This document shows positions 3,153-60,907 of a DNA stretch of 64,000 nt, one piece after another. The stretch is taken from sequence record OR995200.1, one strand, 5' to 3'. The notes beneath the pieces are model-generated. The model had not been told where the DNA came from, did no database searches, and was given only the letters and a program-made list of their open reading frames with translations. Numbering within the stretch: position 1 is the stretch's first letter; each line of letters begins with the position of its first letter. This DNA comes from Escherichia phage JY01. The position numbers and the translations under genes are program-made.

Positions 3153-3189
3153 TTTCTAATCTCCGTAATTCTGTATCAGTAGTTGATAG

Positions 3190-3225
3190 TTGTATAGTAC
3201 CACAGTATGCTTTGGTTGTAAACCG
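3190..3225 (-). promoter_or_regulatory. Early promoter cassette for motA
   Basis: Minus strand reads GTTTAC, 17-18 nt spacer, TGGTACTATA, then the conserved leader CAACTATCAACTACTGATACAG and a GGAG Shine-Dalgarno. Confidence 0.55.
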
Positions 3226-3247
3226 TTTTGTGAAAAAAATTTTTGAA

Positions 3248-3278
3248 ATAAAAAAAGGGAGAGCCGAGGCTCTCCCTA
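3248..3278 (-). terminator. Rho-independent terminator
   Basis: GGGAGAGCC-GAGG-GGCTCTCCC hairpin followed by T8 on the minus strand. Confidence 0.65.
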
Positions 3279-3282
3279 AAAA

Positions 3283-3432
3283 TTACTGCATGACTGTGAT
3301 AACTGTCATGATAACACGTTGAATGCCGAACGCAAGAAGACCTCCTGCTACGGCTGGAACAACACCTAAACCCGCCAGTAAAATGCTACCGGATACTAAT
3401 GCAGCGCTTGTAATACCTATGAATGGACTCAT
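3283..3432 (-). CDS. Small hydrophobic protein (about 49 aa, not in ORF track)
   Basis: MSPFIGITSAALVSGSILLAGLGVVPAVAGG... AGAGGA Shine-Dalgarno. ATG overlaps the gene 52 stop. Confidence 0.35.
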   Translation of the reverse strand: MSPFIGITSAALVSGSILLAGLGVVPAVAGGLLAFGIQRVIMTVITVMQ

Positions 3433-4757
3433 TTGATTTCCTCTAAATCTTTAGTGTATTCGGTAACTACATTAGTAGTTTTCCAATATTCGTTTTCTTC
3501 TTTCTTAGCTTTAGCTTCTTCAGCAAGTTTCTTTGCTTCGTCGGAAGTCATATGAAAAATATTCATTCCAACTAGTTTATCAACATAAGAAGAATACATA
3601 TCGATTTTCGAAAGTTCTTCGGTCAGTTCTTTGCGAGTTTTACCCTGCACAACGATTTCACCTGAAATTACTTTCTTAATGAAATGTGCCTTGGCAAAGG
3701 CTAAACGAAAAGCTGACTCAGTTTCTTTGATTTTGTTATCAATTCGTTTTTTGACATAAGTTTTACGAACTTCAACAAAGTCTTTAATTAAATCGACTAC
3801 GTTATCGTAAACTTGTAGTTTTCCTTTCTCATTAATAACCGTAATATTCTGAGAACGGCGCTCAATTAACCCAAAGTCTTTCATAATTTTTGCATGGCGT
3901 TCTTCTTCATTATCGCTCAAAGAATATTCTTTACGGAATTTAACTTTAAAGCCAAAACCATGCTCACCACAAGCATCATCCCATGTAATGAAGCCTTTAT
4001 CTTCAAGTGGGTCTAAGATTTTACTCACATAAGTTTCACGATCATACTTATACGGAATCTCAGTGATATGCATTTGAGTTCGTGAAGTAAACTTATATGT
4101 TCCACGAATTTCATATTGCCCATCAATCTCAACGACTTCACCACGAAATTCTGGGAATTCTACCTTCGGTTTAGTTACTTTCTTTCCTTGAAGAGCTTGT
4201 AATACAGCTTTCTTAACAGAAGAAACGCTATGAGGAAGAATGTAAGTTGCATAACCAGTTGCAATACCGGAAACGCCATTAAGAAGAACAGTAGGAATAA
4301 TAGGCAAATAGAAAGCAGGCGGAATGTGTTCTTTATCTTGATGTACCGGAGCATATTCAGTATCTTTATATACGTTATAGAAATTTTTACTTACACGAGC
4401 AAAAATATAACGACTTGCTGCTGCTTTTTGGACGGTACGAGAACCAAAGTTTCCTTGACCATCTAACAAAGGAAAGTTATTATTCCAAGTGTTAGCCATC
4501 AAAGCCCCCGCATCTTGTGCAGAGTTTTCACCATGATGATATCCAAGGTCAGCTACACCACCTGCAATAGAAGCAAGTTTGTGAAACTTATCTTTATTTC
4601 CTCGTGCTAAATCAAGGGCTCGAGCAATAACAAATCGTTGGACTGGCTTAAATCCGTCAATCATATTTGGAATGGCACGATTTTCAACCGTGTACATAGC
4701 ATAAGCCAATGCTTCATTATCAATGATACTTTTTAAATCGCGATTATTCAGTTGCAT
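3429..4757 (-). CDS. 52: DNA topoisomerase II medium subunit (GyrA-like)
   Basis: 442 aa as in T4 gp52. GyrA-type N-terminus. ATG start. Confidence 0.9.
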   Translation of the reverse strand: MQLNNRDLKSIIDNEALAYAMYTVENRAIPNMIDGFKPVQRFVIARALDLARGNKDKFHKLASIAGGVADLGYHHGENSAQDAGALMANTWNNNFPLLDGQGNFGSRTVQKAAASRYIFARVSKNFYNVYKDTEYAPVHQDKEHIPPAFYLPIIPTVLLNGVSGIATGYATYILPHSVSSVKKAVLQALQGKKVTKPKVEFPEFRGEVVEIDGQYEIRGTYKFTSRTQMHITEIPYKYDRETYVSKILDPLEDKGFITWDDACGEHGFGFKVKFRKEYSLSDNEEERHAKIMKDFGLIERRSQNITVINEKGKLQVYDNVVDLIKDFVEVRKTYVKKRIDNKIKETESAFRLAFAKAHFIKKVISGEIVVQGKTRKELTEELSKIDMYSSYVDKLVGMNIFHMTSDEAKKLAEEAKAKKEENEYWKTTNVVTEYTKDLEEIK

Positions 4758-4761
4758 AAAT

Positions 4762-4908
4762 TTACCATACTAGTGAATGTAGTGCCATAATAACATCAGA
4801 AATGAAAAGCACGACTTGAATTAATCCGAACATTACTCCATAATATAGTGCTACTAATAAAGTAGCAAGGGCTAATGAATAGCCCAAGATTTTCTTAATC
4901 ATTTTCAT
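4762..4908 (-). CDS. Small hydrophobic protein (about 48 aa, not in ORF track)
   Basis: MKMIKKILGYSLALATLLVALYYG... Start overlaps the 3' end of the ac-like ORF. Weak Shine-Dalgarno. Confidence 0.25.
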   Translation of the reverse strand: MKMIKKILGYSLALATLLVALYYGVMFGLIQVVLFISDVIMALHSLVW

Positions 4909-5047
4909 TTAATAGCCAAAACAATGATAAAATTGCTAATACGCCTTGAGCTGTTGCTTGTAAAAATACTGAAGTTTCTCCAGTTATTACTGTTCCGGCG
5001 AATAAAAAGGACCAGCAGAAAAAGGCTATACCATAAACAAATTTCAT
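4895..5047 (-). CDS. Small membrane protein at the ac position (about 50 aa, not in ORF track)
   Basis: MKFVYGIAFFCWSFLFAGTVITGETSVFLQ... Strong GAGGA Shine-Dalgarno. Lies between stp and gene 52 as T4 ac does. Confidence 0.4.
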   Translation of the reverse strand: MKFVYGIAFFCWSFLFAGTVITGETSVFLQATAQGVLAILSLFWLLNEND

Positions 5048-6187: not shown

Positions 6188-6301
6188 TCACATAAATCCA
6201 AAGTAAACGTTTAATACATCAATCATTAAAACGATTGGGAATATACTCAAAACTATTAGTATTATAACTACATTCCATATAGCTTTAACAATCTTTTTCA
6301 T
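6188..6301 (-). CDS. Small membrane protein (37 aa)
   Basis: Track ORF (69 aa) reads through the promoter-leader cassette. The real start is ATG after the leader GGAGG: MKKIVKAIWNVVIILIVLSIFPIVLMIDVL... Confidence 0.35.
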   Translation of the reverse strand: MKKIVKAIWNVVIILIVLSIFPIVLMIDVLNVYFGFM

Positions 6302-6324
6302 TTTCTGTTCCTCCGTAGTTGATA

Positions 6325-6358
6325 GGGTAATAGTACCACGGAAGAACAGTCTTGTAAA
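6325..6358 (-). promoter_or_regulatory. Early promoter cassette
   Basis: GTTTAC, spacer, TGGTACTATTA, leader CAACTACGGAGGAACAGAAA-ATG (variant 2 of the repeated cassette). Confidence 0.5.
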
Positions 6359-6543
6359 CAACTTTTTAAAAATATTCGTAATAAATGTGAATACCAATCA
6401 CCACTGTTGAAACCTGTGCAACCCACCACGCACAAGCAATAAGTACAGAATTCAAAATTTTCATAATAACCTCATCACAAAAGTAAATGTTAAACAAATT
6501 AATGGAATACTAATTAACCAAACGAAACACCACCATAATGAAC

Positions 6544-6807
6544 TCATAGTTCAATCTCAGCAATTTTCATTTCATTACTATTAATAGCCGCTTTAAGACT
6601 ATCTGAAAGAATTACATCCCAGTGGTCATTCATATGACCATTAATTAAGCGTGTAATTTCTTCTGGAGTTGAAAAATAAGGCGTATCAGACTCCCAATGC
6701 GATAGTCCCAAGCGAGTATAAATCATACCTTCATCATCGCTAGAATATTCAACTGACACAAATTCATCAGTTATTTTATGTTTAGCGTAATAAAATTTAA
6801 ATTTCAT
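6544..6807 (-). CDS. Hypothetical protein (87 aa)
   Basis: Track ORF trimmed to the ATG following the conserved leader GGAGGAGCGGAAA. Confidence 0.5.
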   Translation of the reverse strand: MKFKFYYAKHKITDEFVSVEYSSDDEGMIYTRLGLSHWESDTPYFSTPEEITRLINGHMNDHWDVILSDSLKAAINSNEMKIAEIEL

Positions 6808-6833
6808 TTTCCGCTCCTCCGTAGTTGATAGTT

Positions 6834-6866
6834 GTATAGTACCACGGTCCTTGTGGTATGTAAACT
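6834..6866 (-). promoter_or_regulatory. Early promoter cassette
   Basis: GTTTACATACCACAAGGACCGTGGTACTATACAACTATCAACTACGGAGGAG on the minus strand. Confidence 0.5.
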
Positions 6867-6881
6867 GTTTTATGAAATTTT

Positions 6882-7439
6882 TTAAATAGAAAGATACCAT
6901 CCGTTGTAGTTGCTTTTTCTTACAACCTTACGAAGGTCTTCTCTATCACCGATGAATTTCGGAGTGTACTGGATGACACCTGGATGAATTTCTTTAGTGT
7001 TGAATATAATTATACAGTCAGCGACTTGATGATTTAGAATGGGCCCTAAATTTATTCCAGAACCATATGGATACTCTCCGCTGCATCCCGTTGTTACCGA
7101 AATCCAACGCGAGTCAGTTTGATGTGTTTTGACTTCTACACGAAGCCCGCAATATTTTGGATGCGCTAAAACATCCCATGCATACGTGTACGGATCATCG
7201 ACATTTTCTTGGCCTTTATTGACATATCCGCTTAGCCAATCTGCCACAAAAAACTCTGCGTACACCGCGATACGGCATCTTTCGATAACTTCTGCTTTAT
7301 CCTGGTTCGGGTTTTGTTTTAAAGAGTATCTTGCTGTATCAGCAATTTTGACCTTCATTTCACTAGTCAAGTCACTGTTCGATAGGGTAAATGTCGGAAT
7401 CTGAAATAGTCTCTGCAAACCCGGATTTGTTTTCTGCAT
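6882..7439 (-). CDS. denB: Endonuclease IV (DenB) candidate
   Basis: 185 aa, same length as T4 DenB, between rIIB and ndd. ATG start. Assignment by length and synteny. Confidence 0.5.
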   Translation of the reverse strand: MQKTNPGLQRLFQIPTFTLSNSDLTSEMKVKIADTARYSLKQNPNQDKAEVIERCRIAVYAEFFVADWLSGYVNKGQENVDDPYTYAWDVLAHPKYCGLRVEVKTHQTDSRWISVTTGCSGEYPYGSGINLGPILNHQVADCIIIFNTKEIHPGVIQYTPKFIGDREDLRKVVRKSNYNGWYLSI

Positions 7440-7480
7440 TTAAACTTTCCTTTATGTCGGAATCATAATTTCTCTTAAAA

Positions 7481-7497
7481 CAAAAGGGCCGAAGCCC
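7481..7497 (-). terminator. GGGC-UUCG-GCCC hairpin, bidirectional terminator-like
   Basis: GGGCCGAAGCCCC stem-loop flanked by T-runs on both strands, between the 64-aa ORF and denB. Confidence 0.5.
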
Positions 7498-7503
7498 CTT
7501 ATT

Positions 7504-7698
7504 TTATTTGAATTGTGCAATTCTTTTTTCTAAACACTCTGCGTAAGATTTCATTGAGATGAACTGTGAAAGTAGAAGTTCTTGCTCAACTGCACTAACT
7601 GTTAGAAACTTTGTGCTTTCTAAAAATTTGCTCAGTGCATTAATTTTGAGCATTAATTGATCGTATTCTTCTTTTACTCGTGCTTGATAACCTAACAT
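7504..7698 (-). CDS. Hypothetical protein (64 aa)
   Basis: ORF between rIIB and denB. Predicted helical. Confidence 0.4.
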   Translation of the reverse strand: MLGYQARVKEEYDQLMLKINALSKFLESTKFLTVSAVEQELLLSQFISMKSYAECLEKRIAQFK

Positions 7699-7707: not shown

Positions 7708-7722
7708 TAGTTAAGGGCCGAA
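7708..7722 (-). other. UUCG-tetraloop RNA hairpin
   Basis: GGGCCGAAGCCC immediately 3' of the rIIB stop. No T-run on the minus strand. Confidence 0.4.
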
Positions 7723-7726
7723 GCCC

Positions 7727-8665
7727 TTATTTAAATTGTTCAGTAACGTCTTCAACTACTTCGTATTGGCAGGTACGCATTTTAGCGTCGTTGTAATCAA
7801 TCGGAATTGATACTACATCACGTGGATGTACTTTAACTTTTACAACTCGGCTGGTTGAACTGCCAAAGTGACGAATATAAGATTTAGAACACACATGCAG
7901 ACCACGAGAACAAGTTTGTGTATCATCATCATTCACACGAGTACGTGGCATTTTAACTACTTTACCCGGACTGTTATCAAAGGTGTTTGAGTGACAGTCA
8001 AAGTAGTTGTCACGAACTACTTTCCAAGCATAGAAGTAACCATCTTCGGTGATTTCAATATCGTTTGCTACCAAGAAATCAAAGAGTCGAGATACCGCTT
8101 TTTGGCTTGGGTTTTCCAGCAGATTTTCCAAGAACGGAAAATAAAATTCAAAGTTTTCGCCTTTTTCCATCGAGTCAAGAATACGATCAACCAAACCAGA
8201 CCGCAATTCAATATTTTGATAGAACAAGCTTCCACCTTCAATTCGAACATCACCGGAAATATATTTTTCAACAGCGCGACGAACATTAATTTTTTGTGCC
8301 GCTTCTTCCAACTTATCTGCTACAAGCAGATTAAGAATTTCCTGGAAGTTTGAATGAGTATTAGGAGTTGCGTTATAAGTTACACCGTCAACAGTAATTG
8401 AAATGAATTTTTTAGAAGCATTCCAAATAATATCAGATTTAGCAACTGGAGCAATAGCTACATCGCTATTAACTTTAACTGTAATATCACCGCTAATAGT
8501 AACTTTAGGGCGTTTAGCTTCTTCAGCATTTTTCAAAACACGACGGATTGTGTCAACCGATACATCCTTCCAATAAGCTAATTCCTGCTGAGTGTAATTA
8601 CCGCTTGAATACAATTTAACAATTTCAGCTTGTTCGTTTTTGGTCAGGCATTTAATATTGTACAT
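7727..8665 (-). CDS. rIIB: rIIB protein
   Basis: 312 aa as in T4 rIIB. Directly downstream of rIIA. Confidence 0.85.
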   Translation of the reverse strand: MYNIKCLTKNEQAEIVKLYSSGNYTQQELAYWKDVSVDTIRRVLKNAEEAKRPKVTISGDITVKVNSDVAIAPVAKSDIIWNASKKFISITVDGVTYNATPNTHSNFQEILNLLVADKLEEAAQKINVRRAVEKYISGDVRIEGGSLFYQNIELRSGLVDRILDSMEKGENFEFYFPFLENLLENPSQKAVSRLFDFLVANDIEITEDGYFYAWKVVRDNYFDCHSNTFDNSPGKVVKMPRTRVNDDDTQTCSRGLHVCSKSYIRHFGSSTSRVVKVKVHPRDVVSIPIDYNDAKMRTCQYEVVEDVTEQFK

Positions 8666-11091: not shown

Positions 11092-11123
11092 TAATTATAC
11101 CACATCCTTGTGGTAAAGTAAAC
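11092..11123 (-). promoter_or_regulatory. Early promoter
   Basis: GTTTAC, 17 nt, GTGGTATAAT on the minus strand, upstream of the rIIA.1-position ORF. Confidence 0.5.
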
Positions 11124-12943
11124 TACTGGCTCATCCATTCTTTACGAAGGTCAGCATTATCTCCCATGAGCATTTCAAAAAGATCTTTCCAGTTCTCAGG
11201 AAGTTTAACAACATCATATACTGGATTTTGAATCATCTCACGATATTCAGATTTTTCCAAAGAGCCAAGTCCCTTAATATAACGGATGCTATGTTTAGGT
11301 AGAGCATCTTTAGCACTCTCATATTCAGCGACTGTATAAAACCATTCTTGTTTTTTACCGACCTGGGCGATGATTACAGGAGTTTTGACAAAGCGAATTC
11401 GTCCTTGCTCAAACAATTCTGGCCAATTACTAAAAAATCCAAGAAGAGAAGGATAAATGCTTCCTAGACCATCATGGTCAGCATCAGTCATAATAGCAAT
11501 ATTATGATAATTCAAGTTTTCAGCTTTTTCACCAAGAACTAATCCAGTGATTGCGCAAATATCAAATAGTTCTTTGTTTTTAAGCATATCAGCATATGAC
11601 ATACCCCAACTGTTGAGAACTTTACCGCGCAATGGATAACCACCATGAAGTTCTTTATCACGAACATCAATAAGATATCCGATAGCAGAATCACCCTCAG
11701 TCAAGAAAAGAGTAGTATCAGCATCTTTACCGCAAAGATTCGCTTTGATATGTTTATGAACCTTTGCCTTAGAAGCCTTTTTAGCTGCTTTAGTTTCAGC
11801 TGCTTTTTCTGCTGCCAATTTACGAGCTAGTGCAGCTTCAATAATTGGCATCAGAATTGCTTCATTATTTAGAATAGCGCGTGAAATCTTTTTAGCGTCA
11901 AGTTGAATATGACTACGGATTTCACCAAATGGAGAAGTCAAACGCTCTTTAGTTTGAGAATCAAATCGCATGTTTTTCATATCACGAACAAACATAACGA
12001 TAGTCAAACATTCTTTAACACGTGCTTTAGTTACATCAATTTTGAACTTACGTTTGATTTGTGGAATAAGGTCTTCACAAATATCATCCATAACACAGTC
12101 AATGTGATGACCACCATTCTTAGTATGAATGTTATTGACGTATGTTAATTGACGAAAACCATCCGGTGAACGACCAACCGCAATAGAACAATTTTCTTGT
12201 TCTTGAACAATAGCATGCTCATCATATTGGCGTGCATATTTCTTAAAATTACCCTGAACCTTTTTACCGTTAAAGGTAAATTGAATATCAGGATAAACTA
12301 CTGCAAGTGTCTGGAGACGATCTAGTGTAATGTCAAGATAAACCTGAGATAGCTCATTAGTTTCAAATGACATAAAATCAGGAATGAAAGTAACACGAGT
12401 TCCTTTCCATTTTCCAGGAATATCTTCCCATGATTTATTTTCCATGCCATTTGAACAACGAACTACAATATTATTTTGACCGTCGCCAGTTTCACCGACA
12501 AACATAACAGAAAAAATGTTAGTTAAACTAGAGCCAACACCGTTCATACCGCCAGTGACGCGTTCTTTATCATCGCCGAAGTTACCACCTGCTTTTGGAA
12601 TAGTCCAGGCGGCAACAGGACCAGGAATTTCTTCACCAGTAGGTGTTTTAACCATCGCTTGTGGAATACCACGACCGTTATCTTCAACTGTTACTTGATT
12701 GTTTTTAATAGTAACGTTAATTTTATTTGCGAATTTAAACTTAGTACGAATACCTTCATCTACTGAGTTATCGATAATTTCATCAATAAGCTTAACAAGA
12801 CCAGGTACATACTGAACACTTTCCCATTTACCAAACAGAAAGCGCTCATGCATTTCATTAGCAGAAGAACCAATGTACATGCCGCTACGCTTTTTGATAT
12901 GTTCAATATCGCTCAGAATTTTAATTTCATTCTTAATCATCAC
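11123..12943 (-). CDS. 39: DNA topoisomerase II large subunit (GyrB-like), unsplit 39+60 form
   Basis: 606 aa with GyrB ATPase and TOPRIM regions in one ORF. T4 splits this into gene 39 plus gene 60; here it is continuous. Confidence 0.9.
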   Translation of the reverse strand: MMIKNEIKILSDIEHIKKRSGMYIGSSANEMHERFLFGKWESVQYVPGLVKLIDEIIDNSVDEGIRTKFKFANKINVTIKNNQVTVEDNGRGIPQAMVKTPTGEEIPGPVAAWTIPKAGGNFGDDKERVTGGMNGVGSSLTNIFSVMFVGETGDGQNNIVVRCSNGMENKSWEDIPGKWKGTRVTFIPDFMSFETNELSQVYLDITLDRLQTLAVVYPDIQFTFNGKKVQGNFKKYARQYDEHAIVQEQENCSIAVGRSPDGFRQLTYVNNIHTKNGGHHIDCVMDDICEDLIPQIKRKFKIDVTKARVKECLTIVMFVRDMKNMRFDSQTKERLTSPFGEIRSHIQLDAKKISRAILNNEAILMPIIEAALARKLAAEKAAETKAAKKASKAKVHKHIKANLCGKDADTTLFLTEGDSAIGYLIDVRDKELHGGYPLRGKVLNSWGMSYADMLKNKELFDICAITGLVLGEKAENLNYHNIAIMTDADHDGLGSIYPSLLGFFSNWPELFEQGRIRFVKTPVIIAQVGKKQEWFYTVAEYESAKDALPKHSIRYIKGLGSLEKSEYREMIQNPVYDVVKLPENWKDLFEMLMGDNADLRKEWMSQ

Positions 12944-12991
12944 TTATCCTCGTTTGGTTTCGGGAATATTATACTCCGGTAATCATAAAGC

Positions 12992-13012
12992 TAAAGGCCC
13001 GAAGGCCTTTTA
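12992..13012 (-). other. UUCG-tetraloop RNA hairpin
   Basis: AAGGCCCGAAGGCCTT stem-loop at the 3' end of the lipoprotein gene, upstream of gene 39. Confidence 0.4.
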
Positions 13013-13270
13013 TTTAAAACGGATAGTCGAATCCTTGAAGAATAGACCAGAACATACGGTTCCTTCTACTTTCTGCCCGGTAGGTCCAATAGCGCGAAAT
13101 CCAGTATGTTGGAAATCATTTTCAGAGCAACCGAACCAATTGTATCCAGTGATTTCAATATTAGTAAAACCGCTTGATGACAAAATTTTGGTTGCATTAT
13201 CAGCATCAGTACATCCTGCTAAAGACACTGCTAATACTAATGCTGCGATAGAACGATTAATATATTTCAT
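13010..13270 (-). CDS. Putative lipoprotein (86 aa)
   Basis: Track ORF trimmed to ATG. MKYINRSIAALVLAVSLAGC has a signal peptide and LAGC lipobox. Confidence 0.5.
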   Translation of the reverse strand: MKYINRSIAALVLAVSLAGCTDADNATKILSSSGFTNIEITGYNWFGCSENDFQHTGFRAIGPTGQKVEGTVCSGLFFKDSTIRFK

Positions 13271-14475: not shown

Positions 14476-14745
14476 TTAATTGAACAGTGGAGCGATGCGT
14501 TTCAGAAGAGTAGCAGCACCTTTAGCGAATTTTACATCATGAAAAACAGTTTCTTCTTCCGTTACAACACGAACTTTAATGTTTTCACAATCCCAATTTT
14601 TACGAACAATCTTCAAAAGCTGCAGTAAATCTTTACATTCAGCAATATCGATAACACATCCACGAGAATCTTCCATTATCGCACGATAACCGTAAGCCAT
14701 ACCATAATCGTTGAAAGATTGCTCGATGATAATTAAGTTTTCCAT
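14476..14745 (-). CDS. Hypothetical protein (89 aa)
   Basis: Track ORF starts at a TTG inside the leader (MENKM...). The real ATG follows TTGGAGAATAAA. Confidence 0.5.
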   Translation of the reverse strand: MENLIIIEQSFNDYGMAYGYRAIMEDSRGCVIDIAECKDLLQLLKIVRKNWDCENIKVRVVTEEETVFHDVKFAKGAATLLKRIAPLFN

Positions 14746-14764
14746 TTTATTCTCCAAGTTATTT

Positions 14765-14845
14765 TCTGTATCAGTAGTTGATATTGATATAGTACCATAA
14801 TCAACTACTGATGTATATAGTTTTATGAAAAAATTTTAAACTTTA
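14765..14845 (-). promoter_or_regulatory. Promoter-leader cassette with atypical -35
   Basis: Conserved TGGTACTATA and leader CAACTACTGATACAG are present, but no canonical GTTTAC at -35. Confidence 0.4.
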
Positions 14846-14852
14846 TGCAAAT

Positions 14853-15272
14853 TTATGCTAAAGCTGCTTCGCACCATTTTTTAATTTGGAATTCAGGAAC
14901 TACCATGAACTGGCCTGCAAAAACAATATTGTAGAGCTTGACACCATCTTCTACCCAACGGTCCGAAATAAAACCAGCGACTTGATTCGTTGTCCATGGA
15001 GTTCCATCTGTTGCCGCCGCAATTGTGAATTTATGGTCTTTTACAACTAAAACTGAAGAACAAAGTTTCCATTTAAATGCGCTTTCTTCTGGCTCAATGA
15101 ACTGACTTGAGACATAACCAATGTTACCATCAGCGTCACGAACTTTAACCTCGTTACGACCAAAAACTGGATCACTTACAGAAAGAACTTCAACCAGCTT
15201 TCCTGCAACTTTAGAACGAGAAGCAACGGATACATATACGTAATCACCAGTAGAGAGATTTACAATATTCAT
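14853..15272 (-). CDS. MotB-family paralog A (139 aa)
   Basis: Shares N-terminal VxVASRSKVAGKLVEV and C-terminal D-x-W-V-EDG-x-K-L-Y-N-I-V-F-x-G-x-F motifs with the two upstream genes. Confidence 0.5.
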   Translation of the reverse strand: MNIVNLSTGDYVYVSVASRSKVAGKLVEVLSVSDPVFGRNEVKVRDADGNIGYVSSQFIEPEESAFKWKLCSSVLVVKDHKFTIAAATDGTPWTTNQVAGFISDRWVEDGVKLYNIVFAGQFMVVPEFQIKKWCEAALA

Positions 15273-15281
15273 AATAATTCC

Positions 15282-15755
15282 TTAAGCTTTACGAGGAGAA
15301 GCATAACGAGTGATTTCAGATTCTTCAACAACCCGGAAGTCACCTAAGAATACGATATTGTAGAGCTTTTCACCATCTTCAACCCATTGGTCTGTGATGA
15401 AGCCACACATCCTATCAGTTTTACTTGGACCAGCGAAATCATCAATATAATCGAATTCTTCATCAGTTACAAATTCAACGCCTTTACACAACGCCCATTT
15501 AAATTGTGCATTAGACTCAGTGGATTCAACTTCTTCAACAGAAGCAAAATGAGAGCTAACACGAGTTTCCAGAAATTTAGGACTTACGTAAGCGTACTGA
15601 GTTTCAGTTTTTCCAGAACTAGGAATGATTCGAACTTTAACTTCTATAACACGACCAGTACCATTAGTACGAAGTCCTACCACTTCAACTAGACGACCTG
15701 CAGCTTTAGAACGAGATGCAGACGATACACGCTTAATTTCACCGATAGTAATCAT
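15282..15755 (-). CDS. MotB-family paralog B (157 aa)
   Basis: SSASRSKAAGRLVEV ... FITDQWVEDGEKLYNIVFLGDF. ATG start. Confidence 0.5.
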   Translation of the reverse strand: MITIGEIKRVSSASRSKAAGRLVEVVGLRTNGTGRVIEVKVRIIPSSGKTETQYAYVSPKFLETRVSSHFASVEEVESTESNAQFKWALCKGVEFVTDEEFDYIDDFAGPSKTDRMCGFITDQWVEDGEKLYNIVFLGDFRVVEESEITRYASPRKA

Positions 15756-15793
15756 AATTTTTCTCTCTTTATTGTTAAGATTTATTCTCCATG

Positions 15794-15828
15794 AGAGCCA
15801 TTATAACAGGCTCTCTATAAAGTAAACT
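15794..15828 (-). promoter_or_regulatory. Early promoter with inverted repeat around the -10
   Basis: GTTTAC, spacer, GAGAGCC-TGTTATAAT-GGCTCTC, then a 5-codon mini-ORF ATGGAGAATAAATCTTAA before the paralog B start. Confidence 0.45.
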
Positions 15829-16838: not shown

Positions 16839-16861
16839 TTTATTATCCTCAGTAGCTATGG

Positions 16862-16895
16862 TGTTATAATACCACAACTAACCGAGGAAGTAAAC
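16862..16895 (-). promoter_or_regulatory. Early promoter
   Basis: GTTTAC, 17 nt, GTGGTATTATAAC on the minus strand. Confidence 0.5.
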
Positions 16896-43965: not shown

Positions 43966-43989
43966 TATATCAAACTCCGTATAAAGCTA

Positions 43990-47629: not shown

Positions 47630-47644
47630 AAGGGCCGAAGCCCT
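47630..47644 (-). terminator. UUCG-tetraloop hairpin terminator
   Basis: GGGCCGAAGCCC followed by CTTTTTT on the minus strand. Confidence 0.5.
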
Positions 47645-47844
47645 TAGCTAAACTTTTTGGCACCCTTCCAGCCTTCATACATCATTGCGGCTGATATTAA
47701 TATTGCTCCTGAGCAACTTGAATATTTGTGATTCCAAAACCAGTTTAGAAAAACTTCGTCATCAATACCTTGTGCTATCATATTTTCAAAGAACTGACGA
47801 CGAGCTTCTGCAATTCGCTGCGATAATTTAGATTCAGGATTCAT
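47644..47844 (-). CDS. Hypothetical protein (66 aa)
   Basis: ORF with ATG start. Confidence 0.4.
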   Translation of the reverse strand: MNPESKLSQRIAEARRQFFENMIAQGIDDEVFLNWFWNHKYSSCSGAILISAAMMYEGWKGAKKFS

Positions 47845-48474: not shown

Positions 48475-48507
48475 TAATAATACCACGGTTTGAACTTCTT
48501 GTAAACA
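48475..48507 (-). promoter_or_regulatory. Early promoter
   Basis: GTTTAC, 17 nt, GTGGTATTATTAAC on the minus strand. Confidence 0.5.
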
Positions 48508-49549: not shown

Positions 49550-50020
49550 TTAATCATGTTTCCACACCCCATCGGTATTTGACCAAAGTCGCTGATTGTC
49601 TGATCCTCGCCACAGCTTTTTGGTCGGAAGATTTTTCTCATACTTCCCATCAATAATAACATCAACATATTTAAGCATTTCTAGTTGTTTAATATCTTCA
49701 AACTTATATCCTGTCCACAACCAAATGCTTTTATTGGGATAAAGATTTTTTACTGTTTGAACGATGCAATGAATAACATCTCGGTTATCAGGATAGAGAG
49801 GGTCACCTCCGGTTATAGTCAATCCTTCTATATAATCATTATTCAAACATTCAATCAATTGTTCTAGTGTTTCACCAGTGAATGGAATACCATTTCTAGC
49901 ATTCCATGTTGATTTATTATAACACCCTTCGCATTTATGCAAACAACCTGTGACGAAAAGAACGACCCTGCATCCAGGGCCATTCACAAAATCACAGGGA
50001 TAAAATCTATCATAATTCAT
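49550..50020 (-). CDS. nrdG: Anaerobic ribonucleotide reductase activating protein (radical SAM)
   Basis: 156 aa as in T4 NrdG. Cys cluster GCLHKCEGC. Confidence 0.85.
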   Translation of the reverse strand: MNYDRFYPCDFVNGPGCRVVLFVTGCLHKCEGCYNKSTWNARNGIPFTGETLEQLIECLNNDYIEGLTITGGDPLYPDNRDVIHCIVQTVKNLYPNKSIWLWTGYKFEDIKQLEMLKYVDVIIDGKYEKNLPTKKLWRGSDNQRLWSNTDGVWKHD

Positions 50021-51834
50021 TGGTGTTTAACCCTATGCATGATTTCTTTATTTTTACCGAGATTAAATCCGCGTTCGTTCGGATTTCCCAAATAACCACA
50101 TGTTCTTCTTATGGTATTCATCTTTTTAGGATCAGTTTCTCCGCAAATAGAACAAACAAATCCGTTTTCAGTAGGAGTCATTTCATGGGTACTTCCACAT
50201 GTAAAACATTTATCTACTGGCATATTAACACCAAAATAATCTAAATGTTGTGCGGCATAATCCCATACAGCCTCAAGACCTTTTAAGTTATTTTTCATAT
50301 CAGGAAGTTCAACATAAGAAATGTGACCACCTGTCGCAATGAAATGATATGGCGCTTCACGAGAAATCTTTTCAAACGGAGTAACATTTTCTTCTACTGA
50401 AACGTGGAAACTGTTAGTGTACCAGCCTTTATCAGTAACATCCTTTACACTTCCATATTTTTCTGTATCAAGTTTACAGAAGCGATAGCAAAGGTTTTCA
50501 GCAGGAGTAGAATACAAGCTAAAAGCAAATCCAGTTCTTTCAGTCCACTGTTTAAGATGAGCATTCATTTTAGTTAAAATTTCTTGCCCAATATCACGAC
50601 CGACAAGAATATTCAATTCGTGAATACCAATGTATCCTAAAGACACTGAACTTCTACCGTTTTTAAATAACTCAATTATGTCGTCATCAGGTTTAAGACG
50701 AACCCCGAATGCACCTTCTTGGTAAAGAATAGGAGCAACAGTCGCTTTAACTCCTTTTAAGGAACTAATTCTACACATCAAAGCTTCAAAACATAAATCC
50801 ATTCGCTCATTGAACAATTCAGTAAATTTCTGTTCATTGAACTGTGTTCCAATATAAGAATCTAACGCAATACGAGGAAGATTCAGTGTTACAACACCAA
50901 GATTATTACGTCCATCAAGAATTTCATTGCCAGTCGAATCTTTCCATACGCTCAAGAAACTACGGCATCCCATCGGGGAAACAGGAACAGATGAACCAGT
51001 GATAGCTTTATTGTTCTTAGCTGAAATAATATCAGGATACATCCTTTTGCTTGCACACTCTAAAGCAAGCTGCTTAATATCATAGTTCGGATCGTCTTTA
51101 TAAAGATTAACACCTTCTTCAACAAACATAACAAGCTTAGGGAAAATAGGAGTTATCCCATCACGACCAAGACCTTTAATACGATTTTTCAAAATTGCTT
51201 TCTGAATCATTCGTTCAGTCCAGTCAGTTCCTGTACCAAATGTAATTGTTACAAAAGGAGTCTGTCCGTTTGAACTAAAGAGAGTATTTACTTCATATTC
51301 ATAAGCTTGGAATGCATCGTATACGTCTTTTTCTGTTTTAGATTGGGCATAATTCAGTGCATCGGCGATTTGCCATTTTTCTGCGTCTTCGATATGTTTT
51401 GCATAGGTGCGTTTAACATAAGGAGAAAGTACTTTATCTACATTAGCAAAAGTCGTTCCGCCATATTGATGGGAAGCAACTTGCGCAGTAATTTGTGCCA
51501 TAATTGCAGTAGCAACACCGATTGATTTAGGAGTTTCAATCTGCGCATTACCAAGCTTAAATCCGTTCTCAAGCATTCCTTTTAAATCTACTAAACAACA
51601 ATTAGTAAATGGAAGAGCAGGGGAATAATCAATATCATGAAAATGAATAATTCCGCTTTCATGCGCTTTCATAATAAAAGACGGGACCATATTTTTGGCA
51701 ATGTGTTTAGACACAATACCAGCCATAAGGTCCCGTTGAGTTGGAAAAACACGAGAATCTTTATTAGCATTCTCGTTTAAAAGGTCTTTATTAGTTTTAT
51801 GAATCAATCCTTCAATTTCTTTTTCAATTGTCAT
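50017..51834 (-). CDS. nrdD: Anaerobic ribonucleotide reductase, intronless
   Basis: Continuous 605-aa ORF with C-terminal glycyl-radical motif RTCGYLG and a Cys-rich tail. Confidence 0.9.
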   Translation of the reverse strand: MTIEKEIEGLIHKTNKDLLNENANKDSRVFPTQRDLMAGIVSKHIAKNMVPSFIMKAHESGIIHFHDIDYSPALPFTNCCLVDLKGMLENGFKLGNAQIETPKSIGVATAIMAQITAQVASHQYGGTTFANVDKVLSPYVKRTYAKHIEDAEKWQIADALNYAQSKTEKDVYDAFQAYEYEVNTLFSSNGQTPFVTITFGTGTDWTERMIQKAILKNRIKGLGRDGITPIFPKLVMFVEEGVNLYKDDPNYDIKQLALECASKRMYPDIISAKNNKAITGSSVPVSPMGCRSFLSVWKDSTGNEILDGRNNLGVVTLNLPRIALDSYIGTQFNEQKFTELFNERMDLCFEALMCRISSLKGVKATVAPILYQEGAFGVRLKPDDDIIELFKNGRSSVSLGYIGIHELNILVGRDIGQEILTKMNAHLKQWTERTGFAFSLYSTPAENLCYRFCKLDTEKYGSVKDVTDKGWYTNSFHVSVEENVTPFEKISREAPYHFIATGGHISYVELPDMKNNLKGLEAVWDYAAQHLDYFGVNMPVDKCFTCGSTHEMTPTENGFVCSICGETDPKKMNTIRRTCGYLGNPNERGFNLGKNKEIMHRVKHQ

Positions 51835-52304: not shown

Positions 52305-52346
52305 AATAAAACCCTTACCTTAAATAGATAAGGGTATTTATTATTT

Positions 52347-52523
52347 TTAAGTATTGTAAAACATTCGATGCAATCGTTTATACTGTCGAATCATCTTTTT
52401 AGTAGGACGAGAATAGGTTCCTACGCAAGTGGTCATATGAGGGTCCGTAGAATGTCCTTTAATAAAAAGTTTCCAAACCTTACCGCCATTTAACTTTTCA
52501 GTATAAACCAATTCGGTTTTCAT
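52347..52523 (-). CDS. Small ORF (58 aa) that is a partial duplicate of the upstream gene's 3' end
   Basis: MKTELVYTEKLNGGKVWKLFIKGHSTDPHMTTCVGTYSRPTKKMIRQYKRLHRMFYNT. The last 14 aa and about 45 nt of DNA repeat the end of the 167-aa gene. Confidence 0.35.
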   Translation of the reverse strand: MKTELVYTEKLNGGKVWKLFIKGHSTDPHMTTCVGTYSRPTKKMIRQYKRLHRMFYNT

Positions 52524-52559
52524 TAAAATGTCCTGTCAGAAAAAGAATTTTGAGTTTTT

Positions 52560-53063
52560 TCAAGTATTGTAAAACATTTGATGCAATCGCTTATATTGCC
52601 GAATCTTTTGGTCAGAAAAAGAAATTTGAGTTTCAAGCCATTCAATGTACTCTGCGGCAGCTTGCATCAGGTTACCTTCATAGCCATCGTTATTTTCTTG
52701 CGCAGCTAATTTAGCTAATGCGTATGAAATACGTTCACCTTGAAAAGCGGCTTTAGGATTCTGAACATCTTGGCTAGTTCTCTCTACAACTTCTTCAATT
52801 TCGCCATTTTCAACGGATTCAGTATTCCACAAACACCAGTATGTAATTGGCTTATCATAGATGTTAATAATCTTTCCGTCGGAAAGTTCAATTTCAATAA
52901 TTCCAGTATCAGGTTCTATATCATCTTCGCATTCTTTTGCAAGTTCACGAACTTTAAAGACAGTACCTGCACTAAGTTCCGGCCAGTAATTACATAGCCC
53001 TGTATCAACACGATTAATTCTAAACCACTTATCTACTGTAATCATGTCCCATCTCCATATCAA
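52560..53063 (-). CDS. Hypothetical protein (167 aa)
   Basis: ORF upstream of gene 49, ending ...KIRQYKRLHQMFYNT. T4 pin lies near here but identity is not established. Confidence 0.45.
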   Translation of the reverse strand: MIWRWDMITVDKWFRINRVDTGLCNYWPELSAGTVFKVRELAKECEDDIEPDTGIIEIELSDGKIINIYDKPITYWCLWNTESVENGEIEEVVERTSQDVQNPKAAFQGERISYALAKLAAQENNDGYEGNLMQAAAEYIEWLETQISFSDQKIRQYKRLHQMFYNT

Positions 53064-56459: not shown

Positions 56460-56491
56460 CATTATACCACATCCTTGTGGCGAAGTAAACT
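56460..56491 (-). promoter_or_regulatory. Early promoter
   Basis: GTTTAC, 17 nt, GTGGTATAATG on the minus strand. Confidence 0.5.
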
Positions 56492-57494
56492 AGTTCAGTG
56501 CATTTAGTGCGTTGTTCAGTTTAGAACGTTGCTTTGTCAGATTTTGAACTCTTGACTGCGCTTGTTCTAGCACCTTTTCAGCTTCTAGCATTTCATTGGT
56601 TGCTTTAACGAGTTCATCATCTACTGCTTTAAGAGACTTCTCAATCGCATCGGCGTGCCATTTTTCTACAGGTTTAAAATTTGAATTTTCAGTAGGAAGA
56701 AAACTCACTTTATTAAGTTTCCATGCATCTGTACTACTTGAACTGTACATCCAACATTTAGGATCGTTGGATGAGCAATTAGTTTGAGGTTCAGGTTTTT
56801 TCTCTTGCGTAACTTCGTCCTTTCTCAAAAAATCGTATTTAAATGAAACGATCATATCAAGTTCATATGTTGTCGTATCTAACTTAAATCGTTCAAAACG
56901 AGGTAAAATCTTAGATTGAACAGCAGAAACAACATCCATATACTTAAATGCTTCTGTCAACTGTGATTTAAGGCATTCACAAATTGAAAGAGAATTTTTT
57001 GTATTAGGTTTAAAGCTAATTCGTGCAGTTCTGTTATTTTCTTTTAATGGTCTTACTTCCATCTGAAGAGTATAACCATCAAATTTCAGATTCTTTAAGT
57101 TAATGTCAGAGCCTTTTAATCGACTAGCTGTGGACAAAATTTGCTTTAATTGTCTACGGAACAGAGCAATAAATCTCCATTCAATACGATAATGATTTGG
57201 ATTGAAAAATCCAGATGATAAATCGACCTTACTTTGACCAACGCCTTGAACAAATAGAGGATTTTTATAATCAATAGTTTTACAGAAATCGGTGAGCTGT
57301 TCACGAGCAGTCATTTGTGTAATATACCCCGCTTTACTAAAATGACGTAACCATTCACTGCTATTCATATATTTAAAGTGAATATCACGATTAACTTTAT
57401 CAGGGTCTAAATTATTTTGGCACAAAAATGTCATAACATCACGAGTATAGCTGGCATTACGAACCATATCTTCAATTTGAGAACGAGTTTTCAT
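56490..57494 (-). CDS. Coiled-coil-tailed hypothetical protein, paralog 3
   Basis: 334 aa, starts MKTR. Core RIEWRFIALFRRQLKQILSTASRLKG. C-terminal coiled coil. Confidence 0.5.
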   Translation of the reverse strand: MKTRSQIEDMVRNASYTRDVMTFLCQNNLDPDKVNRDIHFKYMNSSEWLRHFSKAGYITQMTAREQLTDFCKTIDYKNPLFVQGVGQSKVDLSSGFFNPNHYRIEWRFIALFRRQLKQILSTASRLKGSDINLKNLKFDGYTLQMEVRPLKENNRTARISFKPNTKNSLSICECLKSQLTEAFKYMDVVSAVQSKILPRFERFKLDTTTYELDMIVSFKYDFLRKDEVTQEKKPEPQTNCSSNDPKCWMYSSSSTDAWKLNKVSFLPTENSNFKPVEKWHADAIEKSLKAVDDELVKATNEMLEAEKVLEQAQSRVQNLTKQRSKLNNALNALN

Positions 57495-58860: not shown

Positions 58861-59388
58861 TTATGCGAGTACCGTCTTTAACCGTTCTTCAAATTTCCGA
58901 AGAGTGTTCTGGCGTTCAGCTCTTTGCTTTTTGTAAGTTTCAATACGCTCTGAAATGAGAGTGTATCGTTCATTTACTGATTCTTTCATAAAATCAGGAA
59001 TTTCACGAGAAGCTTTAATCTCATCAAATTTATCAATAACAGCTTGCTCTTCAGCAATTAAGTTATCATACATTAAAATATCTTTCTTGATGAACTCAAT
59101 ATCTTCTTGAGTTACACGAGATAATTTAGATGCTTTATCCTTTTTGTACTGTTCGTTAGTATCACGAGACCAGTGTAATGTACGATTTTTATTCGTATTT
59201 TTGTAAATTTCTACAATACCAATTTCATCAATAATAACGATCCAATTCCAACGGGATTTGTAAATTTGTCCTCCATCAACAGTGATTTCACCTCCGATTG
59301 AGATGTCGTTAAAGAACTTGCTTTGTGCTTCAGATTTAAATTTACCATCGTTGTAATTTACCAAGTTGAAAATATCTTTAGCGTTCAT
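58861..59388 (-). CDS. Hypothetical protein (175 aa)
   Basis: Track ORF trimmed to the ATG following the leader GGAGGAACAGAAA. Charged, helical C-terminus. Confidence 0.5.
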   Translation of the reverse strand: MNAKDIFNLVNYNDGKFKSEAQSKFFNDISIGGEITVDGGQIYKSRWNWIVIIDEIGIVEIYKNTNKNRTLHWSRDTNEQYKKDKASKLSRVTQEDIEFIKKDILMYDNLIAEEQAVIDKFDEIKASREIPDFMKESVNERYTLISERIETYKKQRAERQNTLRKFEERLKTVLA

Positions 59389-59413
59389 TTTCTGTTCCTC
59401 CGTAGTTGATAGT

Positions 59414-59447
59414 TGTATAGTACCACAGAGGAACAGTCTTGTAAACA
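59414..59447 (-). promoter_or_regulatory. Early promoter cassette
   Basis: GTTTAC, spacer, TGTGGTACTATACAACTATCAACTACGGAGGAACAG. Confidence 0.5.
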
Positions 59448-59448
59448 A

Positions 59449-59763
59449 CTAAAAGAAACTTCTTTCACAATTTTTTCCACTGAACCAAGCGCTCACTGCT
59501 TTCTTAGTCTCAGGAGCAGTGTTATCCATAAACCATTCAAAGGCAGCCTTTTTATGATTCTGGAGGGCTTCTCGGGCTTTAATCTGCTCACGGTCTATTA
59601 ACACTAACATATGAGCCTTTCTTGTCACCAAGGGCTTCTTATGATTCTTGGAGTATTCCCAGTCATTTGTCCAACGCATTGTCGTTGCGAACTGAAATAC
59701 TGCTTCTTTAATTTTAGTTTCGTAAATTTCACGAGCCTTTGAGTATAACATCATTACCTCCAT
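59449..59763 (-). CDS. Hypothetical protein (104 aa)
   Basis: ORF whose 3' end runs into the promoter cassette. Start uncertain. Confidence 0.35.
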   Translation of the reverse strand: MEVMMLYSKAREIYETKIKEAVFQFATTMRWTNDWEYSKNHKKPLVTRKAHMLVLIDREQIKAREALQNHKKAAFEWFMDNTAPETKKAVSAWFSGKNCERSFF

Positions 59764-59852
59764 TTACCAGTTTAATTCTAGTCATCTTTTTGATGGCAGT
59801 CCATATAATCTATTTCTGAACTGCCTTTTTGTCATAGAAGGCCTCTTATGAA

Positions 59853-60821
59853 TTATTTCAGAAGAGTAACCTCAGCAATTTCTTCCCAACCGTTTTTGTC
59901 GGTCATAATAAAGTCAGCAAGATAAAGAGCAGTACGCAGTGAAACATTGCGTAAACGATTAACATTGACTTTCATCCATGATAATGCTTTATAAGTTTCT
60001 TCATCAGAAAGACCGCGCTTTTGCATCATGTCAGTTGAAAGAATAACATCTTCAACCCTGACCATAATTTCTTCATTAGTGTGAACACCCAAATCCAAAT
60101 AAACTGAGCGGGACACTAATGCTTGTAAATGTGGAGCAAGTTTAGTACCACGGTCTAATTCGCGGTCAATGTCAACGTTTGTGATAAAAACAATCGTTCC
60201 TTTAAATTCAAACTCACGCTCAATGCCTTTTTCTTCTAAGTAAGAAGATGCAGTGCTCCAGCAGACTTTACGGGTCTCTCCAGTGTCCAGAGCGGCTTTT
60301 AGAAGATTAAGAATATCCATATCAGAGAAAACATCCACATCATCAATCAAAAGGACAGAATTCTCTTCACGATTATTCCAAAGCTGCTCATAAAGACCGA
60401 TACCGGAGATTTTACCGTTAATGCTTTTATATTCAATGTATCCAATATCATTTGCTTTATTTAAAGCTTTATCTAAAGAATACGTTTTACCAATACCTGC
60501 TGCACCAGAGATAATTAATGAACGAATGTTTCCGTTAATAATACCATTCGTCATCATTCCCATAACATTAAATCTTTTATTAATGCGGGTTTTCATATCT
60601 TCATACGATTCTTTAACTTCTTCAACTTTTACACCATCATATGAAATGTCTGATTTGTAAACCCAAACACCGCGACGTTTACCGTCAATTTCAACAAAAA
60701 CTTTACCATCTCCTTGTGCATCTACCGGAGCATTATCTGGGAACCATTCGCCTAAGAGCTCAAAAGTTCCAGAGATTTCTTTACCGAAGTAGATACCCTT
60801 ATTGATAGTTACAGTTTTCAT
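59853..60821 (-). CDS. AAA+ family ATPase (322 aa)
   Basis: Walker A SGAAGIGKTYS and Walker B VLLIDDVD. Track ORF trimmed from the TTG in the leader to the ATG. Confidence 0.6.
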   Translation of the reverse strand: MKTVTINKGIYFGKEISGTFELLGEWFPDNAPVDAQGDGKVFVEIDGKRRGVWVYKSDISYDGVKVEEVKESYEDMKTRINKRFNVMGMMTNGIINGNIRSLIISGAAGIGKTYSLDKALNKANDIGYIEYKSINGKISGIGLYEQLWNNREENSVLLIDDVDVFSDMDILNLLKAALDTGETRKVCWSTASSYLEEKGIEREFEFKGTIVFITNVDIDRELDRGTKLAPHLQALVSRSVYLDLGVHTNEEIMVRVEDVILSTDMMQKRGLSDEETYKALSWMKVNVNRLRNVSLRTALYLADFIMTDKNGWEEIAEVTLLK

Positions 60822-60856
60822 TTTATTCTCCAAATCTGTATCAGTAGTTGATAGTT

Positions 60857-60889
60857 GTATAGTACCATAAAGCTTTATGATTGTAAACC
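60857..60889 (-). promoter_or_regulatory. Early promoter cassette
   Basis: GTTTAC, spacer, TATGGTACTATACAACTATCAACTACTGATACAGATTTGGAGAATAAA-ATG. Confidence 0.55.
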
Positions 60890-60907
60890 GTTTTGTGAAA
60901 AATTTTT

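Follow-up and report, generated by a model that had tools for sequence, protein, structure and literature searches.

The window analyzed here, a 64,000-nt stretch of Escherichia phage JY01 (sequence record OR995200.1), is the early region of a Tequatrovirus, and it holds a promoter-leader cassette that recurs upstream of unrelated early genes. All genes of the window are on the minus strand, its G+C content is ~34%, and its overall identity to phage T4 is ~95%. When aligned by local BLAST with the whole T4 genome, it proved collinear from ~160.4 kb, across the map origin, to ~57.8 kb, with an identity of typically 92 to 98% along this span, and a 6-kb piece carrying annotated genes for the topoisomerase medium subunit, rIIB, denB, ndd, and motA matched more than 400 T4-like phage genomes at 94 to 97% identity. 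The regB gene lies outside the window.

The cassette was followed by means of a 24-mer, TGGTACTATACAACTATCAACTAC, which occurred on the minus strand in five exact copies (3179 to 3202, 6821 to 6844, 34167 to 34190, 59402 to 59425, and 60844 to 60867), together with a sixth copy at 14774 to 14797 with 3 mismatches and a seventh at 6315 to 6338 with 4 mismatches (variant TACTATTACCCTATCAACTAC); the chance expectation was 0.00, none of 100 shuffles containing any match. The original prediction had placed the cassette at seven positions between 3.19 and 60.9 kb, and the 24-mer search recovered every one of them. It had also claimed at least eight copies; seven extended blocks stand at these positions, but the others proved to be ordinary early promoters. 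Likewise, the repeat described as a near-identical block of 60 to 70 nt is real, but its identity is not uniform, in that the 15-nt spacer between the -35 and -10 elements varies among copies and the invariant stretch, which runs from TGG to where the leader begins, covers ~24 to 33 nt. The genes downstream of the seven copies are unrelated (motA, a 37-aa ndd.4-like open reading frame [ORF], the small ORFs of PHROG 2390, 3720, and 4189, nrdC.8, and nrdC.10), and every cassette lies on the minus strand upstream of early genes, namely, motA, the ndd.x genes, the imm.1 region, nrdC.8, and nrdC.10. Neighboring copies are 506 bp (6.3 and 6.8 kb) and 1442 bp (59.4 and 60.9 kb) apart.

In each copy an A/T-rich stretch, often TTCACAAAAC, precedes the -35 element, and an UP element of the AAAAATTTTTTCACAAAAC type (-60 to -36) is found in most copies, being weak at 59.4 kb. 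GTTTAC, for which ATATAC stands at 14.8 kb, lies 15 nt upstream of TGG in all seven copies, and the geometry TTTACA-17-TACTAT with TG is kept in six of the seven, the 14.8-kb copy being the one with the weak -35. This combination of TTTACA, a 17-bp spacing, TGn, TACTAT, and an UP-like A/T tract is that of a very strong sigma-70 promoter, and the predicted +1 is the A of CTATCAAC, 7 nt after TACTAT. The leader that follows is 22 to 37 nt long, ends in GGAG...AAA-ATG, and comes in two types, as had been predicted. Type A, TGATACAGA...TTGGAGAATAAA-ATG, is found at 14.8, 34.2, and 60.9 kb and, as a related form, in the motA copy (3.2 kb), and type B, ACGGAGGA(A/G)C(A/G)GAAA-ATG, at 6.3, 6.8, and 59.4 kb.

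The first copy, the motA cassette (3150 to 3277; this and all following cassettes are on the minus strand), begins with an intrinsic terminator hairpin (3256 to 3277) and an A/T-rich UP element, continues with GTTTAC (3218 to 3223) and TGGTACTAT (3194 to 3202), and has its predicted +1 at A 3187, from which a 35-nt leader with GGAGATTAGAA runs to the ATG at 3150 to 3152. The ndd.4-like cassette (6299 to 6395) has the variant core, GTTTAC at 6354 to 6359, a predicted +1 at 6323, and the leader ACGGAGGAACAGAAA before the ATG at 6301 of the 37-aa ORF. The 6.8-kb cassette (6805 to 6900) combines GTTTAC at 6860 to 6865 with the exact core, a predicted +1 at 6829, and the leader ACGGAGGAGCGGAAA; its ATG at 6807 opens an 87-aa ORF (PHROG 2390, 6544 to 6807) that is absent from T4. 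The 14.8-kb cassette (14743 to 14855), in the gap between the motB-side genes and cef, has its weak -35, ATATAC, at 14813 to 14818, and a 37-nt leader ending in TTGGAGAATAAA connects its predicted +1 at 14782 to the ATG at 14745 of an 89-aa ORF (PHROG 3720).

Downstream of gene 43, the 34.2-kb cassette (34142 to 34247; GTTTAC at 34206 to 34211, exact core, predicted +1 at 34175, leader TGATACAGATTTGGAGAATAAA, ATG at 34144) precedes an extra 78-aa ORF (PHROG 4189), and it is the orthologue of the T4 promoter upstream of imm.1, which we read as Pe26.4. The nrdC.8 cassette (59386 to 59482) has GTTTAC at 59441 to 59446, the exact core, a predicted +1 at 59410, and the leader ACGGAGGAACAGAAA before the ATG at 59388. 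Finally, the nrdC.10 cassette (60819 to 60936) starts with a terminator hairpin, GGGAGCCTTCGGGCTCCC, at ~60919 to 60936 with a T-run, followed by the UP element, GTTTAC at 60883 to 60888, a spacer with the palindrome CATAAAGCTTTATG, the exact core, a predicted +1 at 60852, and the leader TGATACAGATTTGGAGAATAAA up to the ATG at 60821.

In T4, twelve sites lie within 5 mismatches of the 24-mer, and seven of these are at loci orthologous to those of the window (motA, ndd.4, ndd.6, the motB-cef gap, imm.1, nrdC.8, and nrdC.10). The 24-mer cores of window and T4 are identical at motA, imm.1, nrdC.8, and the ndd.6 locus (T4 163629, 27036, 53899, and 167042, respectively), the T4 motA site extending from 163629 to 163673. 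Several of the T4 orthologues carry annotated promoter signals: -35/-10 signals precede motA in GenBank Z48569 and nrdC.8 in GenBank U76612, and at nrdC.10 the latter record marks an upstream terminator and -35/-10 signals labeled "early promoter 54.4." These annotations and the TTTACA-17-TACTAT geometry with TGn and UP bear out the claim that the blocks are promoters. As for the start site, T4 position 27,044 has been given as the upstream boundary of the stretch that Pe26.4, Pe20.3, and Pe19.8 transcribe (Hinton laboratory, PMC6024815). In our reading, the T4 imm.1 promoter starts at this coordinate, which falls on the A of CTATCAAC, the position predicted by spacing. The expected start coordinates were absent from the supplement text of a T4 NAD-cap/dRNA-seq preprint.

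Beyond T4, the cassette was found at 3591 places in 551 phage records, that is, ~6.5 per genome. An exact-match scan of IMG/VR yielded 12 loci on 5 contigs, a set that served for junctions and is too small for per-position conservation. T4 early promoters (Pe) have been described as "uber" promoters with the elements UP, -35, TGn, and -10, and alignments of them show additional consensus regions (Hinton 2010, PMC2988021). The window cassettes share with them sequence, loci, and architecture (UP, GTTTAC, a 17-bp spacer, TGn, TAnnnT, and an A at +1), whereas the downstream gene differs at 6.8 kb (87-aa ORF), 14.8 kb (89-aa ORF), and 34.2 kb (78-aa ORF), and the leader type differs as well at 6.8 kb.

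Conservation past the -35 and -10 hexamers, which the original prediction had claimed, was evident in T4: of its 31 early promoters under a strict definition, 11 have near-perfectly in common the block from TGG to ~+9, through the discriminator and the start site into the leader, and the other 20 show a weak cTaTC-like preference near the start. NAD-capping was considered as the cause of the conserved start region and dropped, since capping prefers purines at -1 and -2 and G/C at +2, with which the +1 context (C T A T C) does not fit.

Strong cleavage by the phage endonuclease RegB with S1 follows the consensus GG*AGRAYARAA (Durand et al. 2006; review PMC3014915). The Shine-Dalgarno (SD) region of leader A, GGAGAATAAAA, matches GGAGRAYARAA at 11 of 11 positions, and the three exact matches in the window (14745 to 14755, 34144 to 34154, and 60821 to 60831; 0.45 expected) are all in cassette leaders. 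The motA leader, GGAGATTAGAA, matches at 10 of 11 positions (3154 to 3164), whereas leader B, GGAGGAACAGAAA, differs from T4 RegB/S1 sites in fitting the consensus only with a one-base shift. Following Uzan's work, we take motA mRNA to be cut by RegB at its leader site. Because the SD region of leader A matches the RegB consensus exactly, the shared leader is plausibly a common off-switch of early messages, which agrees with the predicted coregulation of the 5′ untranslated regions.

Comparison of the cassettes across genomes showed the copies to be mosaics. At 6.8 kb, window and T4 are the same from the UP element to the core, -35 and spacer included, and diverge exactly after CAACTAC, the window continuing with leader B and the 87-aa ORF and T4 with leader A fused to the last eight codons of that ORF. 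These codons form an 8-codon mini-ORF, MKIAEIEL, that overlaps the ndd.6 start (T4 167017 to 166994, against window 6807 to 6544), and the mini-ORF is the C-terminal remnant of the window's intact ORF. The leader of the T4 ndd.6 cassette is nearly identical to that of the T4 imm.1 cassette, which suggests ectopic exchange. At 34.2 kb, window and T4 differ in whether the 78-aa ORF stands between two ATGAAAAT repeats. In the relative L014, three ORFs with early promoters of their own are inserted directly after ACAACTATCAA (~+5) of the nrdC.10 cassette, and the ndd.4 locus of the relative L016 combines the canonical core with an nrdC.8-type spacer, in place of the variant core and spacer of T4 and the window.

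Mosaic copies were also found within one genome. The motA and nrdC.10 copies have the terminator and the UP part in common but not the spacer, and the copies at 6.3, 34.2, and 59.4 kb have a common spacer, AAGACTGTTC(T/C)TC(T/C)G, but different leaders. The 34.2-kb copy joins a spacer typical of leader-B cassettes to leader A, which breaks the hairpin, and no stem-loop was found in this copy. T4 copies part from the family after ACAAC, CTATC, or CAACTAC, and paralogues carry genome-specific variants, ACAGATTTGG in both window copies and ACGGATTTGG in all three T4 copies. The mosaic copies, the private variants, and the swap in L016 are marks of ectopic recombination or gene conversion between copies.

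Chaining of the window against T4 gave 22 insertion, deletion, or replacement events, of which 3 have an edge inside one of the seven cassettes (0.44 expected, p ~0.008 under uniform placement). The claim that the repeats drive recombination and module shuffling thus gained support, one locus even carrying the cassette of another. On the whole, all four parts of the original prediction (repeated promoters, coregulated leaders, recombination, and artefactual ORF extensions) were supported, although the minus-strand orientation, the connection to RegB, and the stem-loop component had been missed.

Units of this kind have been described as PeSLs (promoter-early stem-loops), in which a repeated A/T-rich region, an early promoter, a stem-loop, an SD sequence, and an ATG are combined, and which lie in variable regions of T4-type genomes and mediate the insertion, deletion, and exchange of small ORFs (Arbiol 2010, PMC2839356, for RB49/phi1; Comeau 2014, PMC4122927, for PST/T4 and nt-1/KVP40). 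The PST/T4 PeSL consensus is TTTACW-N17-TAYWAT, with SD and ATG at the end (PMC4122927), and the present cassette fits its promoter part. In addition, crossovers in RB49 were mapped between the -10 element and the ATG, and the ndd.4-ndd.6 locus, at 6.3 to 6.9 kb in the window, is among the worked PST/T4 examples of Comeau 2014 (PMC4122927). The window cassettes share with PeSLs the composite build, the repetition in variable early regions, and the adjoining insertions, deletions, and replacements; the formation of mini-circles was shown for RB49/phi1 only.

We therefore consider it about 90% probable that the cassettes are T4-type early promoters packaged as composite regulatory cassettes, the PeSLs. 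From upstream to downstream, such a cassette would comprise, in some cases, a terminator or attenuator hairpin; a UP element rich in A/T that would serve the C-terminal domains of the RNA polymerase alpha subunits; the -35 GTTTAC(A), the 17-bp spacer, the extended -10 TGn, and the -10 TACTAT, with the start at the A of CTATCAAC; and a 22- to 37-nt leader with the SD GGAG in an A-rich context before the ATG. The unmodified host sigma-70 polymerase would fire these promoters immediately after infection, and the GGAG(R)AYARAA leader would make the mRNA a substrate of RegB/S1, by which early messages would be turned off minutes later. The near-identity of the subfamily (7 of ~16 early promoters here, 11 of 31 in T4) would stem from common descent together with ectopic homologous recombination or gene conversion, to which selection for a very strong promoter and start region may add. 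The shared homology would in turn let genes be inserted, deleted, or swapped as ready-to-express modules.

Several points weigh against this interpretation or limit it. The sequence anatomy, the orthology to T4 early-promoter sites, the cassette breakpoints, and the mosaic copies were observed, but promoter activity, the exact start site in JY01, RegB cleavage, and the relative weight of conversion and selection are matters that we infer from sequence. For T4, too, the start-site evidence is indirect, consisting of the spacing and the single map position quoted in PMC6024815. In these data, homogenization by conversion cannot be told apart from purifying selection acting on the block between -10 and +9. 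The breakpoint excess was computed against a null uniform over the window, and it would be weaker with the null restricted to intergenic DNA. Moreover, most differences between window and T4 (homing endonuclease genes, an intron, and small tandem duplications) lie outside the cassettes, and the latter are one source of plasticity among several.

A different reading of the invariant core holds that the block from -10 to ~+9, TACTATACAACTATCAACTAC, in which CAACTA occurs twice, is kept identical mainly as the recognition site of a specific factor, such as an agent of early-promoter shut-off or as a sequence that determines stimulation by Alt ADP-ribosylated polymerase. The block is indeed invariant among members of a cassette family whose spacers vary, and a hand count over window/T4 orthologues gave 1 substitution and 1 indel across 168 nt in the core against 4 changes across 105 nt in the spacer, a difference that rests on very few changes; reviews, moreover, describe both early-promoter shut-off and the Alt effect as not understood (PMC2988021, PMC3014915). 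Yet the block is found in only about one-third of early promoters, whereas shut-off affects all early promoters, and mutational analysis traced the Alt effect to no single promoter position (PMC2988021). Mosaics are also joined within the block itself, with copies parting after ACAAC, CTATC, or CAACTAC, which recombination explains better than a fixed operator does, and we regard a dedicated recognition site as unlikely.

Even less probable, in our judgment, is that the cassette spreads by itself as an autonomous mobile element, either miniature-transposon-like or an integron-style site with a dedicated recombinase. Its many copies per genome and the variable ORFs at its flanks would suit such an element, and the help of a dedicated recombinase was left open by Arbiol 2010 (PMC2839356), but terminal inverted repeats and target-site duplications were not seen, and the same loci are occupied in T4, the window, and five other contigs. 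The junctions vary within homologous stretches and at short repeats such as ATGAAAAT, as expected if they arose by general homologous or microhomology recombination, a highly active process in T4. As to the possibility that the repeats arise by chance, from the composition of A/T-rich intergenic DNA, or through faulty assembly, the low G+C content of the genome (~34%) could invite such a reading, but it is refuted by the shuffles noted above and by the occurrence of the same copies in T4 and in the 551 independent records, and we give it practically no weight.

The cassettes as composite early promoters are a textbook T4 feature already published for T4-type phages (Hinton 2010; Arbiol 2010; Comeau 2014). 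For annotation, they mark the true starts of early genes. The TTG-GAG-AAT-AAA-ATG of the leader translates to LENKM and the promoter with leader B to GTIQLSTTEEQKM, and the predicted artefactual extensions were recovered as TTG-started ORFs reading LENKM... and as ...GTIQLSTTEEQKM, which is translated promoter and leader; by taking TTG or an upstream codon in this way, ORF callers over-extend at least six ORFs of the window. The cassettes also illustrate how T4-like phages add small early genes with promoter, ribosome-binding site, and RegB off-switch attached, a plug-in of small genes already described for T4, PST, RB49, and KVP40-type phages, to which the window adds nothing new.

Apart from the extended cassettes, the pattern GTTTAC-N14-16-TGnTAnnnT, searched on both strands, gave 17 minus-strand and 2 plus-strand sites, with 3.4 expected in all. 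Nine or ten further early promoters were thus recognized in the window, and what they have in common with the cassettes is UP/-35/TGn/-10 only. All those that follow are on the minus strand. The promoter at 729 to 758, GTTTAC-N15-TGATATTAT, lacks the extended block and has a T4 orthologue at 161211. T4 orthologues are also found for the promoter at 16866 to 16895 (at 8218), whose hairpin encloses the -10 and pairs with the SD, and for that at 20730 to 20759 (at 11851), which lies upstream of srd (a 248-aa ORF at 19948 to 20694). The promoter at 22065 to 22094 stands upstream of modB and modA, and a terminator hairpin precedes the one at 24173 to 24202. At 28464 to 28493 the -10 lies in a hairpin loop; a repeat finder gave a 9-bp perfect inverted repeat here (ACAAGACTA/TAGTCTTGT), and in the RNA fold the stem has 15 pairs. 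The site at 48477 to 48506, which answers to the shorter versions of the cassette mentioned in the original prediction, is 63% identical to the cassette over 87 nt.

The promoter at 11094 to 11123 has a spacer hairpin, ACCACAAGGATGTGGT, and a paralogue at 56461 to 56490. The two share a 32-nt stretch, GTTTACTTTACCACAAGGATGTGGTATAAT (11094 to 11125 and 56461 to 56492), at 94% identity, spacer hairpin included, although they are 45 kb apart, and they form a second paralogous promoter pair, separate from the main cassette family. A possible further early promoter, GTTTAC-N13-TGTTATAAT, with a spacer two bases shorter, was noted at 15800 to 15827 (minus strand); GAGAGCC/GGCTCTC encloses its -10, and after it comes GGAGAATAAAT, which departs from the RegB consensus at one position.

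Stem-loops were found at cassettes and ordinary promoters alike. Six early promoters of the window are enclosed in hairpins far more stable than shuffled sequences (z -3.9 to -6.9; 200 shuffles, none as stable), all on the minus strand: at 6.3 kb (6290 to 6359; -22.7 kcal/mol, z -5.5), 14.8 kb (14734 to 14818; -20.2 kcal/mol, z -4.7), 16.9 kb (16827 to 16895; -23.7 kcal/mol, z -6.4), 22.1 kb (22027 to 22094; -20.8 kcal/mol, z -5.0), 28.5 kb (28423 to 28493; -18.9 kcal/mol, z -3.9), and 59.4 kb (59377 to 59446; -25.5 kcal/mol, z -6.9). Among the extended copies, the hairpins at 6.3, 14.8, and 59.4 kb enclose the -10 (z -4.7 to -6.9), that at 14.8 kb being a 13-bp perfect inverted repeat around it; at 6.3 and 59.4 kb the spacer pairs with the SD (arms 6305 to 6319 and 6335 to 6349, and 59392 to 59406 and 59422 to 59436, respectively). 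For the remaining four extended copies, no significant hairpin was predicted from the -35 to the ATG; two of these (3.2 and 60.9 kb) have a classical terminator just upstream, and spacer palindromes occur at 60.9 and 6.8 kb. The stem-loops of PeSLs have been placed upstream of the promoter, within its spacer, or across the -10 (PMC2839356), and the positions in the window (upstream, in the spacer, and around the -10) are as described.

At four promoters (6.3, 16.9, 22.1, and 59.4 kb) the SD or AUG forms the 3′ arm of the hairpin, and for these the predicted probability that the SD is unpaired is 0.00 in read-through RNA versus 0.78 to 0.91 in RNA started at the promoter. At 22065 to 22094, for instance, the -10 and the start region are predicted to pair with SD and AUG in the read-through RNA. 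In T4, the duplex of a spacer with its own leader has a mean energy of -11.5 kcal/mol, versus -7.0 kcal/mol with the leaders of other promoters, an excess that no permutation matched and that holds after the 31 promoters were collapsed to 23 spacer families. Spacer-leader complementarity lies beyond the 5th percentile of mismatched pairs in 13 of the 31 T4 early promoters, and in 7 of these 13 the paired stretch covers the SD. Strong pairing was seen in none of the 6 terminator-preceded T4 promoters versus 12 of the 25 others, a difference that is suggestive only (rough p ~0.06). Covariation of the nrdC.8 hairpin across five phages was not found, the two variable positions (spacer T/C and leader G/C) being in different pairs.

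Tentatively, these folding predictions raise the possibility that, through promoter-embedded hairpins, both the translation and the RegB sensitivity of the downstream gene vary with the promoter from which its RNA was transcribed. In read-through RNA the SD would be locked in a helix of 13 to 18 bp, and RNA from the promoter's own start would lack the 5′ arm and leave the SD open. Hairpins that enclose a promoter mask the ribosome-binding site of T4 e, soc, 49, and I-TevI when the transcript is long; those, however, use late promoters, whereas the window hairpins hold early ones, and the authors of the PeSL studies interpret stem-loops of this sort as attenuators or terminators rather than as masks of translation. 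If true, the hypothesis would extend the T4 late-promoter masking mechanism to a sizeable share of early promoters, and it is the only lead here that goes slightly beyond what we found described.

The comparison with T4 also revealed differences of other kinds, at 11458 to 11523, 24520 to 24663, 25221 to 25242, 31436 to 32383, 45198 to 45223, 50000 to 50020, 51296 to 51299, and 61953 to 62916. The window is without the gene 60/mobA insertion, its topoisomerase large subunit being a single 606-aa ORF (11123 to 12943), and it is also without segF, dam, mobB, mobC, and the nrdD intron with I-TevII; the segA/b-gt and mobD regions give way to other sequence. Direct repeats occur at 26643 to 26691 and 27001 to 27049 (94% identical, 358 bp apart) and at 52330 to 52392 and 52543 to 52605 (83% identical, 213 bp apart). 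Both pairs coincide with a double alignment of the window to one T4 segment, an indication that small tandem duplications set it apart from T4 here. In addition, the adjacent ORFs 14853 to 15272 and 15282 to 15755 share segments with 71 to 79% nucleotide identity (14884 to 14976 with 15313 to 15405, and 15187 to 15234 with 15682 to 15729) and look like tandem paralogues; they fall in a part of the window (14738 to 16001) that aligns poorly or not at all to T4, with 69 to 79% identity where aligned.

An Rfam scan of the whole window gave no family at the gathering score. A second repeat family occurs in intergenic DNA, consisting of short G+C-rich, terminator-like hairpins, AAGGGCCGAAGCCCTT, with a GAAG loop, at 7476 to 7505, 7713 to 7740, 12986 to 13015, 37076 to 37105, 39272 to 39301, 43982 to 44011, and 47630 to 47657; the copy at 37076 to 37105 adjoins an 85-aa ORF that is absent from T4.

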